Both the position numbers and the translations under genes were made by a program. From Escherichia phage PMBT57, in the sequence record MG770228.1: a DNA stretch of 64,000 nt, one strand, 5' to 3'. The notes beneath the pieces are model-generated. The model did no database searches and was not told the DNA's origin. It saw nothing but the letters and a program-made list of their open reading frames with translations. Positions 7,468 through 8,752 of the stretch are shown one piece after another. Positions within the stretch are counted from its first letter, which is position 1. Each line of letters starts with the position of its first letter.

Positions 7468-7572
7468 TATTCATCGCTTAGTAAATACCCAAATAAAGAA
7501 AGAAGTTGTTTCTTGAAATTAGTTACTGCTTGTAAGAGCAGATAAGTTTGTAGTATAACTACGCTCAACCAA

Positions 7573-7647
7573 GATGGTGTAGCTCAGTGGTAGAGCAGTT
7601 GGCTGTTAACCAACTGGTCGATGGTTCGAATCCATCCACCATCGCCA
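7573..7647 (+). tRNA. tRNA-Asn (GTT), CCA encoded
   Basis: Hand-folded cloverleaf: acceptor GATGGTG/CACCATC, D arm GCTC/GAGC, anticodon arm GTTGG-CTGTTAA-CCAAC, T arm GATGG-TTCGAAT-CCATC, then G-CCA. Confidence 0.93.
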
Positions 7648-7652
7648 AATTT

Positions 7653-7742
7653 GGAAGGTTGTCAGAGAGGCCGATTGTACCTGACTTGAAATCAGGAGGC
7701 GCAGAGATGCACCCGAAGGTTCGAATCCTTCACCTTCCACCA
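7653..7742 (+). tRNA. tRNA-Ser (TGA), type II with long variable arm, CCA encoded
   Basis: Acceptor GGAAGGT/ACCTTCC, anticodon arm CCTGA-CTTGAAA-TCAGG, ~17-nt variable arm, T arm GAAGG-TTCGAAT-CCTTC. Confidence 0.88.
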
Positions 7743-7746
7743 AATT

Positions 7747-7822
7747 GCTGGTTTAGCTCAGTTGGTAGAGCAATTGCCTTGTAAGCAATGGGTCAATGGT
7801 TCAAGTCCATTAACCAGCACCA
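7747..7822 (+). tRNA. tRNA-Thr (TGT), CCA encoded
   Basis: Acceptor GCTGGTT/AACCAGC, anticodon arm ATTGC-CTTGTAA-GCAAT, T arm AATGG-TTCAAGT-CCATT. Confidence 0.93.
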
Positions 7823-7830
7823 ATACAGGT

Positions 7831-7910
7831 TATTAGTGAACACACTATAGAACCTCCCAGCTTCCTCCAGATGTACGGCAATACATTAGCTGGTAGTGTG
7901 TTCACTGATA
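7831..7910 (+). ncRNA. structured RNA module A: long hairpin closed by a 17-bp stem
   Basis: 7831-7847 pairs base-for-base with 7894-7910 (16 Watson-Crick pairs plus one G-U). Inner stems are CCAGCT/AGCTGG and ATGTA/TACAT. It lies 8 nt after tRNA-Thr and has no ORF. Confidence 0.5.
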
Positions 7911-7989
7911 GGTTGTACTATCACAGTCCAGACAATATCTGCGTGACTTAAAAAACAGATGGAGCCAGGTGGAATCCCTGGCAATTAAT

Positions 7990-8055
7990 TCCGGTGTAGG
8001 TACTAGTGTTGTGCACGACATGAGTGTTCTGGTTCGAGTCCAGACGCCGGAACCA
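7990..8055 (+). pseudogene. truncated tRNA-like element (acceptor plus T arm plus CCA; D/anticodon region too short)
   Basis: Acceptor TCCGGTG/CGCCGGA, T arm TCTGG-TTCGAGT-CCAGA, then A-CCA. Only 66 nt in total. A 4-bp stem presents GACATGA (CAT) with non-canonical loop flanks, and there is no variable region. Confidence 0.4.
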
Positions 8056-8166
8056 ATTTGAAAGAACTCTTATTTTGGTTACCGCAAAAGAAGTGAAAAA
8101 TGTTGTGGAAAACTACTTCCCAATTAGGTTCGAATCCTAAACCAGAGTAAGAGTTCTTTCGAATTG
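8054..8166 (+). ncRNA. structured RNA module B: 19-bp closing stem enclosing a tRNA-type T arm
   Basis: 8054-8072 pairs with 8148-8166 (18 Watson-Crick pairs plus one G-U). Inside are TGGTT/AACCA and TTAGG-TTCGAAT-CCTAA. No ORF. It ends 8 nt before tRNA-Pro. Confidence 0.5.
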
Positions 8167-8174
8167 AAGATTTA

Positions 8175-8251
8175 CAGGATATAGCTCAGTTTGGTAGAGC
8201 GTCTGCTTTGGGAGCAGAGTGTCGTAGGTTCGAATCCTGCTATCCTGACCA
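8175..8251 (+). tRNA. tRNA-Pro (TGG), CCA encoded
   Basis: Acceptor CAGGATA/TATCCTG, anticodon arm TCTGC-TTTGGGA-GCAGA, T arm GTAGG-TTCGAAT-CCTGC. Confidence 0.92.
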
Positions 8252-8253
8252 AA

Positions 8254-8337
8254 TTAGTGCTCTGGTATATTACTTTTAACCCCTAGGTTATGCCACAGTA
8301 ATACAACAGATTGGGTCATCTGAAACCAGAGCACTAA
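8254..8337 (+). ncRNA. structured RNA module C: 13-bp closing stem with two internal hairpins
   Basis: 8254-8266 (TTAGTGCTCTGGT) pairs perfectly with 8325-8337 (ACCAGAGCACTAA). Inner stems are TATTACT/AGTAATA and CAGAT/ATCTG. It starts 2 nt after tRNA-Pro. Confidence 0.45.
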
Positions 8338-8455
8338 CCTAATGTGTGGGATGTAACAGTTAAATCCAGTTGCCGGAAGTGCAATTCTAGATACGCTGCC
8401 AATGTGTGAACGGTAAGGCTGTACAGGACTCGGACTCCCATCCCACCTCCTTATT

Positions 8456-8552
8456 TGAACCAGGTATGAACGGCTTACTTAGTATTAACTGCATAGGGGT
8501 ATGTTAGGGATACTTAGGTGGTAAGCAGTTGGTAAGAATCCAACATGGTTCA
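8456..8552 (+). pseudogene. possible decayed or interrupted tRNA-like relic
   Basis: A 7-bp acceptor-like stem TGAACCA/TGGTTCA (8456-62 / 8546-52) has an adjacent 5-bp/7-nt-loop arm GTTGG-TAAGAAT-CCAAC (8528-44). There is no CCA, and I could not fold a convincing D or anticodon arm. Confidence 0.25.
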
Positions 8553-8698
8553 TTCCCTATTAGCAGTAACATAGTCCTGAGTACGTGTGCTCTAAAGACA
8601 ATATTGGTGAGACAGTCCAATAGCTGCTAAATTAAATTCGTCCATTCCTCTTGGATGTGTAGCGAGTGAAGGTAACACTTAAAAATCCATGACCCATA

Positions 8699-8730
8699 GA
8701 AGCCTCCAGGATTAACTGGAGGCTTTTTTA
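8699..8730 (+). terminator. intrinsic terminator closing the tRNA/ncRNA locus
   Basis: AGCCTCCAG (8701-09) pairs with CTGGAGGCT (8716-24), followed by T6. Confidence 0.8.
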
Positions 8731-8752
8731 TTTAATTAAATAAGGAAGCAAG

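Follow-up and report, generated by a model that had tools for sequence, protein, structure and literature searches.

Positions 7468–8752 of the 64,000-nucleotide (nt) stretch of Escherichia phage PMBT57 analysed here (MG770228.1, one strand, 5' to 3'; hereafter the window) carry four transfer RNA (tRNA) genes and about 970 nt of non-tRNA sequence. The latter comprises separable units of 25–115 nt, which display conserved, strand-specific RNA structure, are modular in their distribution, are associated with tRNA clusters and persist in a relative without tRNAs. The locus is probably a polycistronic stable-RNA operon, in which four decoding tRNAs are combined with at least seven conserved structured modules, most of them tRNA mimics. 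A function of these modules at the RNA level is very likely. By analogy with known phage RNAs, we lean towards their release as discrete stable RNAs, while a specific decoy or regulatory role is proposed only tentatively.

The source genome belongs to Enquatrovirus, and the locus is 98.6% identical to that of coliphage N4 (EF056009, 32278–33679) and 99.6% identical to that of phage VEc25. N4 is a textbook model phage, yet the 1.5-kb gap between gp47 and gp48 in its reference record (EF056009/NC_008720, 32113–33631) carries no annotation whatsoever, the four canonical tRNAs included. Newer records of the locus annotate the four tRNAs and, in some cases, a "tRNA-Undet". The gap holds RNA families supported by covariation that are common to N4-like, Vequintavirinae and T4-like phages, one of which, M2a, is also found in many temperate phages.

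tRNAs and modules of the locus

7573–7647, + strand: tRNA-Asn (GTT), ARAGORN; Rfam tRNA model 77.5 bits; CCA encoded
7653–7742, + strand: tRNA-Ser (TGA), ARAGORN; Rfam 50.5 bits; CCA encoded
7747–7822, + strand: tRNA-Thr (TGT), ARAGORN; Rfam 75.8 bits; CCA encoded
7824–7917, + strand: M1, 24-nt arms around a 46-nt interior hairpin, starting directly after the CCA of tRNA-Thr
7922–7989, + strand: M2a, two-hairpin motif; model R2, 83.5 bits
7990–8055, + strand: M2b, 66-nt mini-tRNA mimic with a 7-base-pair (bp) acceptor stem, discriminator A and CCA
8054–8166, + strand: M3, closed by a 27-bp stem, with one arm and, next to the 3' strand, the canonical T arm UAGGUUCGAAUCCUA
8175–8251, + strand: tRNA-Pro (TGG), ARAGORN; Rfam 68.9 bits; CCA encoded
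8254–8337, + strand: M4, closed by a perfect 13-bp stem; one 7-bp arm bearing an apical hairpin; T-like hairpin
8346–8446, + strand: M5, three-way-junction tRNA mimic with a long composite arm, a 3-bp T-like stem and a 7-nt loop
8456–8552, + strand: M6, 7-bp closing stem UGAACCA/UGGUUCA and long arm GCUUAC...GUAAGC; inverted repeat I17
8560–8630, + strand: M7, closed by UUAGCAG/CUGCUAA, with one small hairpin and another of 6–7 bp that abuts the 3' strand
8665–8689, + strand: M8, hairpin of 4 bp (AGUG-AAGGUAA-CACU; loop of 7 nt), then UAAAAAUCC

A first-pass annotation of the window had reported a locus devoid of genuine open reading frames (ORFs), in which four CCA-encoding tRNAs are embedded in structured non-tRNA sequence. 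Both statements hold: ARAGORN and Rfam concur on the four tRNAs, which sum to 318 nt, and the only ORF of at least 60 amino acids (aa), 7587–7784, crosses the tRNAs. All 4227 families of Rfam release 15 were searched permissively (E <= 10) against positions 7300–8900, and apart from the four tRNAs no match came near a gathering score. At the thresholds for canonical tRNAs (at least 29 bits with RF00005; ARAGORN default), only tRNA-Asn, -Ser, -Thr and -Pro are recovered.

Compensatory changes and strand specificity

Covariation was assessed by RNAalifold counts and by shuffling, with three to four clades per module. Compensatory changes were found in five modules, namely M2a, M2b, M3, M5 and M7, across lineages that include Gamaleyavirus, Kaypoctavirus, Humphriesvirinae, Vequintavirinae and the T4-like Tegunavirus. 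The stems of these modules are conserved and covary in related as well as unrelated phages, in line with the test proposed in the first-pass annotation. In M3, 14 of the 34 consensus pairs, located throughout the long stem and in the internal arm, show compensatory change among 11 sequences of four clades, with the loop and the T arm remaining constant. In M7, 10 of 16 pairs are compensatory in nine sequences. The corresponding fraction for M5 is 8/30; its internal 5-bp helix covaries at each pair, and the 3-bp T-like stem displays one exchange of G-C for A-U. The 89-nt interior of M5 is 100% identical between N4 and PBM-3, and the closing stems of these two copies differ by compensatory pairs. 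Four of the 23 pairs of M2b are compensatory, two of them in the T stem (UCUGG/CCAGA versus GUUGG/CCAAC). M2a shows double changes in 5/14 pairs; 93.5% of its alignment cells are paired, compared with 14–40% when the partners are slid, and its covariation score was equalled by none of 500 shuffles. Additionally, the T-like stem of M6 in phage Pollock reads GCUGG/CCAGC, which is compensatory with respect to GUUGG/CCAAC, and the stem of M8 covaries by eye (AGUG/CACU, GGAG/CUCC, GCAG/(U)GCU).

IMG/VR copies of M2a, M3, M5 and M7 were collected by patterns in which part of the unpaired sequence was prescribed, as were the linker and the inner P1 helix in the case of M2a. The invariance of these segments is therefore partly by construction, and the covarying helices were unconstrained. 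A scan of IMG/VR with the core of M3 yielded 13 loci, five of which (L018, L020, L026, L027 and L028) consisted of unrelated AT-rich sequence and were discarded.

These alignments bear directly on the question of whether the region encodes small proteins, an explanation we regard as extremely improbable. ORFs of 26–38 aa are present, the AlfredRasser record distributes four hypothetical proteins over the locus, and further records contain some that cover modules. Against this, no ORF of 60 aa or more lies outside the tRNAs, indels of 1 and 2 nt separate the homologues (M3 columns 55–56; M5 columns 26 and 53), and the substitutions track base-pairing rather than codon phase. The coding sequence (CDS) SP076_00325, which is annotated through annotated tRNAs, demonstrates that such calls can be artefacts. 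Short "hypothetical protein" CDSs over the modules or M2a were encountered in AlfredRasser, UE-S5a, RudolfBernhard_Bas96, SopranoGao, Kpn BU9 and KpF5; in view of the covariation and the indel pattern, they are probably spurious.

The structure is specific to the strand of the tRNAs. The M3 model (R1) scores 104–139 bits on the + strand and 25–36 bits on the - strand (128.5 versus 32.5 for the copy in the window), and conserved G-U pairs, which would become A-C mismatches on the opposite strand, are frequent in the stems of M3 and M5. The strand-biased scores together with the many G-U pairs point to an RNA fold of the tRNA strand as opposed to a cruciform in the DNA.

Distribution and modularity

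In a sensitive BLAST of the non-tRNA segments, pieces of 60–135 nt recur independently in other phages. M2a and M2b together are found in Gamaleyavirus and in Kaypoctavirus KP8 at 88–96% identity; M3 in G7C, Moonfish, several Humphriesvirinae (Pylas, FSL SP-058, SP-076 and KpCHEMY26) and the T4-like Yersinia phages TG1 and phiR1-RT; M5 in Gamaleyavirus (up to 98.9% identity) and in Vequintavirinae of about 150 kb; and M7 in Gamaleyavirus, KP8 and Moonfish. In the Vequintavirinae, M5 stands alone in a 13-tRNA array, where it occupies 200 nt without annotation that separate tRNA-Glu from tRNA-Asp; the other neighbouring tRNAs of this array are 3–10 nt apart. Phage Pollock carries a 92% identical M4 directly after tRNA-Leu, followed by M6 without an intervening M5, and in PBM-3 tRNAs are located between M5 and M7. 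Since order and combination vary among phages, the modules are separable cassettes rather than parts of one large RNA.

A module and a tRNA situated within 500 nt of each other are on the same strand in all cases: 10/10 for M5, 3/3 for M4, 8/8 for M7, 6/6 for M3 and 14/14 for M2a. This constancy matters for the possibility that the modules are DNA-level elements, i.e., recombination or homing hot spots, or cassettes resembling miniature inverted-repeat transposable elements (MITEs), which shuffle tRNA clusters and fold as RNA only incidentally. The cassette-like distribution is in keeping with such elements, as are the recurrence of the same stem and 3' flank (…GATAGTTTTCGTAAGCGAT) around different cargo in KP8, PBM-3, Pylas and one further locus (L033) and the homing endonuclease genes that adjoin such loci (HNH in G7C, SegB in T4). 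However, the orientation relative to tRNAs is fixed, the G-U pairs would be mismatched on the other strand, where the model scores about 100 bits lower, and the compensatory changes extend to short internal helices that are unlike terminal repeats. By eye, the target-site duplications expected of MITEs are absent, and the strands are asymmetric. A purely DNA-level origin is accordingly improbable, and we retain structured RNA as the preferred reading.

The modules are more conserved than their surroundings. The flanking genes (SSB and gp46–gp49) share 68–76% identity with Gamaleyavirus or Kaypoctavirus, a range exceeded by M2a/b (92–95%), M5 (91–98%) and M7 (78–84%). In the Humphriesvirinae, the only DNA that aligns is M3 (84–88%) together with tRNA fragments. 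The higher conservation of the modules fits purifying selection and also fits recent transfer.

The strongest argument for an independent role is provided by phage G7C, because its modules persist without any tRNA. Its 1.2-kb locus (L004, 1105–2331) is likewise ORF-free and closed by a terminator, and retains M3, M7 and M8, the downstream hairpin; neither ARAGORN nor Rfam detects a tRNA in it. Directly upstream lies gp47.1 (L004, 402–899), an HNH homing endonuclease gene. Rfam returned nothing at gathering thresholds for either the G7C or the SP-076 locus.

Two of the compared records contain noteworthy tRNA annotations. In Pollock (NC_027381; L013, 871–1200), tRNA-Pro, -Met, -Arg and -Leu are annotated on the strand opposite to that assigned by ARAGORN, and this annotated strand appears to be wrong. 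In FSL SP-076 (NC_021782; L011, 256–928), tRNAs for Ser, Asn, Arg and Leu are annotated, three of which are overlapped by the CDS SP076_00325; none of the four is recovered in the locus by ARAGORN or at the Rfam gathering score, and they may be further non-canonical tRNA-like elements.

A common tRNA-mimic plan

M2b, M3, M4, M5, M6 and one module of FSL SP-076 follow a common plan, in which a stem formed by the 5' and 3' ends encloses one or two arms, and a hairpin with a 7-nt loop abuts the 3' strand in the manner of a tRNA T arm. No anticodon arm is present in any module of this plan. An acceptor-like stem stacked on a T-like arm is found in M2b (7/5), M3 (T arm UAGGUUCGAAUCCUA), M5 (9/3) and M6 (7/5, loop UAAGAAU). 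The T loops of M2b and M3 are canonical, and the 3' end reads ACCA in M2b as well as in most homologues of M5. Judged from these structural models, the modules are best described as tRNA mimics, not tRNAs. M7 is probably a mimic of the same plan.

The individual modules vary this plan in several ways. In M2b, one hairpin replaces the D and anticodon arms and is followed by a canonical 5-bp T arm with the loop UUCGAGU; it escapes detection at default ARAGORN and Rfam thresholds, and some records label it "tRNA-Undet" or "tRNA-OTHER". The arm of M3 carries a conserved loop (GUGAAAAAUGU...AAACUAC). M4, in which repeats D8 and I5 were detected, shares ...AUCYKAAACCAGAG with M3 and thus looks like a paralogue of it. 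The closing stem of M5 is 8 bp in the N4 copy and 9 bp in the homologues, and the 3' end reads CUCC in the former and ACCA in most of the latter. The T-like arm of M6, GUUGG-UAAGAAU-CCAAC, adjoins the 3' strand; the fold of the single M6 sequence is not significant. In M7, the hairpin loop URAGRCAGU is conserved. The consensus structures of M2b, M3, M5 and M7 lack a 5-bp stem with a 7-nt anticodon loop, in place of which M2b has a 4-nt loop, M3 a loop of about 18 nt and M5 one long composite arm.

The first-pass annotation had spoken of tRNA-like relics, a term that understates the case, since the elements look selected and not decaying. The modules as functionless, decaying pseudogenes of a once larger tRNA cluster are therefore a very improbable explanation. 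It could draw on the weak tRNA-like candidates that ARAGORN reports over M2, M3, M5 and M6 at relaxed settings, on the "tRNA-Undet", "tRNA-OTHER" and "tRNA-Cys" annotated at or beside modules in some records, and on the T-arm sequences shared with true tRNAs (repeats D1 and D3). Decay, however, would not leave helices foreign to tRNA maintained by compensatory change across phage subfamilies, modules more conserved than the adjacent protein genes, and the same non-canonical architectures in Vequintavirinae and T4-like phages. Nor do the candidates qualify as tRNAs: those obtained for M2b, M3, M5 and M6 with ARAGORN in the -ps70, intron or mitochondrial modes are weak and inconsistent, with mismatched stems and aberrant arms, and were rejected.

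The closest known counterparts of the proposed tRNA mimics are T4 RNA C (species 1) and RNA D (species 2), encoded by rnaC and rnaD, which are late RNAs visible on Northern blots and still of unknown function (PMC9697503, PMC3014915). Like the modules, they are non-tRNA elements that lie within a tRNA cluster in the same orientation. The resemblance to these RNAs suggested by the first-pass annotation is supported by structure: in RNA C, a closing stem is followed by a long arm, another arm and, beyond a 5-nt linker, a canonical T arm that abuts the 3' strand, an arrangement shared with M3. Homology between M3 and rnaC is unproven, because model R1, run with filters off, gave only a partial match of 10.9 bits (E 0.93, model positions 38–87) to rnaC; it gave nothing for rnaD, and BLAST found no match to the T4 RNAs outside the tRNAs. 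The N4 modules are more numerous and more diverse, and RNA C lacks anything comparable to the extended 22–27-bp stems that close M1 and M3. Furthermore, accumulation is established for RNA C and D and predicted for the N4 modules. RNAs of this general kind are thus already established by T4 RNA C and D, and the module families themselves are absent from Rfam 15. In agreement with the first-pass annotation, no description of non-tRNA RNAs in the tRNA loci of N4-type phages was found in the searchable literature; the KP8 paper reports only six tRNA genes, four of which are identifiable (PMC6950046).

M5 also invites comparison with allo-tRNAs. Phage tRNA clusters contain 8/4 and 9/3 allo-tRNAs, some of which have been proposed to be regulatory non-coding RNAs instead of decoders (PMC5389517). 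As in the 9/3 type, the M5 homologues possess a 9-bp acceptor-like stem (alignment columns 3–11 pairing with 98–106) and a 3-bp T-like stem (85–87 with 95–97; G-C in seven sequences, A-U in one), which together form a 12-bp branch, and an ACCA end is common among them. The N4 copy differs from this type in its 8-bp stem and its lack of CCA. Assignment of M5 to the 9/3 allo-tRNAs was nevertheless rejected: the interior is a single composite helix of 6 + 2 + 5 + 2 + 3 bp, without a recognisable D arm, a 7-nt anticodon loop or a separate V arm. The cloverleaf that ARAGORN forces on M5 has mismatched stems and none is visible by eye; the RNAalifold consensus was used in its place. The 9/3 allo-tRNAs of Mukai et al. 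keep a full cloverleaf, including a long-stemmed D arm capped by a tetraloop, an anticodon arm and a long V arm, which the modules do not (PMC5389517).

The T-like loop of M5, CUCGGAC, departs from the usual T-loop consensus. In the tRNA-like domain of transfer-messenger RNA and in MALAT1 mascRNA, an acceptor/T-arm minihelix without an anticodon arm recruits RNase P and the CCA-adding machinery and defines the RNA ends. The tRNA-like domain of YrlA is permuted, whereas in the modules, as in normal tRNA, the T arm comes before the 3' half of the closing stem. GOLLD and ROOL are structured phage and prophage RNAs of unknown function that tend to adjoin tRNA genes. Plant mitochondrial t-elements likewise act as tRNA-like processing signals (PMC1920247); the modules differ from such signals in standing in tandem and in persisting, in G7C, without a neighbour that needs processing. 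YrlA consists of a long terminal stem and a tRNA-like domain (PMC4201824). Among the Rfam results there was no match to GOLLD or ROOL, and YrlA (RF02553) scored 19.5 and 17.3 bits against a gathering score of 69, on T arms only. A single large RNA of the GOLLD/ROOL type (500–800 nt) is ruled out, as the modules are separate and reordered and have tRNAs between them.

Long stems and the possible processing of the transcript

The closing stems of M1, M3 and M4 are exceptional in length. The arms of the M1 stem (7824–7847/7894–7917) are 24 nt long and 83% Watson-Crick complementary, and the fold contains 5 + 18 contiguous pairs; those of M3 (8054–8080/8140–8166) are 27 nt long and 89% complementary, with 27 contiguous pairs; and M4 (8254–8266/8325–8337) is paired at 13/13 positions. 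Folding energies relative to 200 dinucleotide shuffles correspond to z-scores of -6.7 (M1), -8.3 (M3) and -5.4 (M4), and no shuffle equals them. The long perfect stems of the first-pass annotation therefore exist, but only that of M4 is perfect as such, those of M1 and M3 being so if G-U pairs are counted. Inverted repeats with arms separated by an interior of 46–59 nt number three in the 64-kb window, all of them in the locus, which makes up 2% of it. Stems of 20–27 bp, often with one conserved mismatch, are found in M1 and M3 and in modules of KP8, PBM-3, SP-076 and L033. They share the sequence ...AATGAG(A/T)AC...GT(T/A)CTCTTT... despite different interiors, and each begins at the terminal CCAAUU of the tRNA or mimic before it. 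A homologous stem of this length range with one mismatch is also present in G7C.

An RNase III site spans about two helical turns (at least 20 bp) of largely uninterrupted double-stranded RNA, a shape shown by M1 (5 + 18 bp) and M3 (27 bp); on the basis of its modelled fold, M1 is a candidate RNase III site. T4 species 1 RNA was reportedly cleaved by RNase III in vitro in the 1970s. The 3' arm of the M1 stem (…CACTGATAGGTTGTA, window positions 7894–7924) overlaps a local hairpin, GATAG-GTTGTA-CTATC, which is conserved directly upstream of M2a in pSb-1-type phages. In view of this overlap and this conservation, formation of M1 may be an alternative to that of the hairpin.

Such stems raise the possibility that the modules act only in cis, as punctuation for the processing and stability of the tRNAs (entry sites for RNase III, E and P, or protective hairpins), and have no life after cleavage. 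The start of the long stems at the CCAAUU of the preceding tRNA or mimic speaks in favour of this possibility, as do the 22–27-bp stems with a single mismatch, the classic shape of an RNase III substrate, and the recurrence of the stem sequence around different interiors. On the other hand, G7C keeps M3 and M7 with no tRNA to process, and M5 sits within dense Vequintavirinae arrays, in which adjacent tRNAs are otherwise spaced by 3–10 nt. Moreover, it is the loops and unpaired junctions of M3, M5 and M7 that are most conserved (GUGAAAAAUGU; the 89-nt interior common to N4 and PBM-3), and these would be needless for a cleavage site. Exclusively cis-acting modules are thus unlikely, and modules that outlive their excision as RNAs remain the preferred reading.

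M2a, a widespread two-hairpin element

M2a stands apart from the other modules in kind, and its distribution is far wider than could be seen from the window. The motif of about 62 nt comprises a first helix (P1, AGYC-CAGA...UCUG-GRCU), an invariant A-rich linker (AAAAACAGAUGG) and a second hairpin (P2) with a UGGAAKC loop. It is present in at least 120 viral contigs of IMG/VR, in 103 GenBank phage records and, among 5,426 complete genomes of E. coli, in 15, and is nowhere annotated. Besides the window copy, instances include L155 and L157 (3506–3573 in both) and the IMG/VR loci L038–L154. Rfam gave no family at gathering thresholds for 13 loci bearing M2a, and the element is possibly a new family.

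In 92 of 113 distinct contexts, no tRNA lies within 1.5 kb of M2a. In lambdoid prophages, the gene for a CI/LexA-type repressor comes first, then an intrinsic terminator and a sigma-70 promoter (TTGACA-17-TAATAT in KpF5); M2a follows after 300–400 nt of untranslated RNA, and about 200 nt separate it from the first early-left genes (RdgC, ParB-like, Ea22-like). The untranslated leader of the early-left operon, about 650 nt in these prophages, also holds recurring hairpins with GAAGNAGA loops. The position of M2a in these prophages is that of nutL or putL. In N4, by contrast with this leader setting, M2a is found mid-operon. Its neighbours in N4-like phages are a tRNA, a tRNA-like T arm or M1 upstream and M2b downstream; M2b begins 0–2 nt after M2a in all N4-like phages having both. 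The ends of M2a could be defined by these neighbours through tRNA-type processing.

These contexts suggest, by analogy, the hypothesis that M2a is a leader or antitermination element. It shares with HK022 putL/putR, lambda nut and rrn boxA/boxC two stem-loops over about 60–70 nt, and, as in antitermination leaders, an A/U-rich boxA-like tract lies next to a hairpin. HK022 put RNAs bind the beta' zinc-binding domain of RNA polymerase and counteract pausing and termination. The HK022 put sites are defined by a length of about 70 nt, two stem-loops and a place in the leader of an early operon 3' of the promoter, all of which are also found in M2a; putR lies about 270 nt from its transcription start (PMC9378689). 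As far as sequence is concerned, the identification of M2a with known signals was rejected. Over the whole HK022 genome, model R2 returned only 15.2 bits, at an intrinsic terminator (33019–33077), and in the rrnH leader, which was considered for its boxA (GCUCUUUAACAA)/boxC signal, it scored 2.2 bits (E 7.6); the likeness to the latter is limited to one short hairpin, CAGACAAUCUG(U)GUG. As the put sites went undetected and the rrn likeness amounts to this one hairpin, the antitermination role is proposed as a hypothesis only.

Proposed mechanism and significance

In the stable-RNA operon that we propose, one transcript would comprise the modules and the tRNAs and extend to the terminator at 8727. 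The mimics cannot decode and would present an acceptor/T-arm face to tRNA-handling enzymes: RNase P would cut at their 5' ends, RNase E or exonucleases would trim after the CCAAUU ends, and RNase III would cut the 22–27-bp stems of M1 and M3. The products would be discrete stable small RNAs similar to T4 RNA C and D, acting in trans on host factors that bind the acceptor/T-arm face of tRNA. Possible targets include processing, modification or charging enzymes as well as tRNA-targeting defence effectors. M2a would be a separate leader-type RNA, with its ends defined by the adjacent tRNA or mimic.

Several points weigh against this proposal. The N4 copy of M5 lacks CCA. M1, M4, M6 and M8 have few distinct homologues (two sequences for M4), and none was found for M1 outside Enquatrovirus. 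The covariation counts ignore the kinship among sequences. The high identity of the modules could result from recent horizontal transfer and not from selection, given the homing endonucleases next to the loci. Finally, transcript boundaries, processing sites and stability are all deduced from sequence.

A bolder, joint version would hold that M2b, M3, M4, M5 and M6 are decoys for proteins that bind the tRNA elbow, acceptor or CCA end and, at the same time, that M2a represents a new class of leader RNA; as a whole, it is speculative and rather doubtful. If the decoy part were true, host factors, including tRNA-targeting anti-phage effectors, would be titrated or misdirected, and the T4 RNA C/D class would gain a testable function. 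If the M2a part were true, the element could be, for example, a protein-independent or Nus-dependent processive antiterminator, protecting long untranslated transcripts in lambdoid early operons and in the stable-RNA operons of lytic phages alike.

T4 RNA C and D, a puzzle for 50 years, can now be approached by comparing several families and their natural variants, among them the tRNA-less locus of G7C, and the modules provide concrete candidates for phage tRNA mimicry. tRNA-targeting defences and the phage tRNAs that counter them are an active field (PMC10264068). In addition, spurious "hypothetical protein" and "tRNA-Undet" annotations are flagged in dozens of therapeutic-phage genomes.

Boundaries and neighbouring sequence

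7432–7467 (hairpin 7432–7457), + strand: upstream hairpin, inverted repeat I10, after the small ORF 7257–7421; weak terminator at best
7468–7572, + strand: M0, 5' leader before tRNA-Asn, with a putative sigma-70-like TTGTAA (7530–7535)-18 nt-TATAAC (7554–7559), recognized by eye
8698–8733 (scan 8698–8727), + strand: intrinsic terminator with a 12-bp stem, six G-C pairs and a T run, closing the RNA operon

The locus is located at the end of a rightward gene block. SSB, gp46, gp47 and a 54-aa ORF precede it; gp48 and gp49 follow, and beyond them the 3,506-aa virion RNA polymerase is encoded on the opposite strand. Of the two intrinsic terminators by which the locus was thought to be bounded, the downstream one is sound and carries an annotation in phages Jura and AL25. 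The upstream hairpin is real but weak: the terminator scan scored it on the - strand only, and its + strand tail (TTCGTTAGTTTATT) is poor in T, so this boundary is weaker than first stated.

The promoter scan did not flag the putative promoter in M0, and the fold of M0 is not significant (z = -1.3). Its conservation is uninformative because the leader is nearly invariant in Enquatrovirus, with one substitution among three genomes. The 54-aa product of the small ORF 7257–7421, between the gp47 homologue and the RNA locus, is strongly hydrophobic (MATKLLLGVVVFIVLILLIVRII...) and, judged by this sequence, is probably a small membrane protein. In phage Jura (LR999871; L001, 1481–1700), a 127-bp tandem duplication extends from the last part of the small ORF through the upstream hairpin into the leader; a new module in this extra sequence was ruled out, and the duplication is either genuine or an assembly artefact. 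Elsewhere in the genome, an inverted repeat at window positions 58302–58362, with 28-nt arms that are 79% complementary and a 5-nt spacer, may be a bidirectional terminator.

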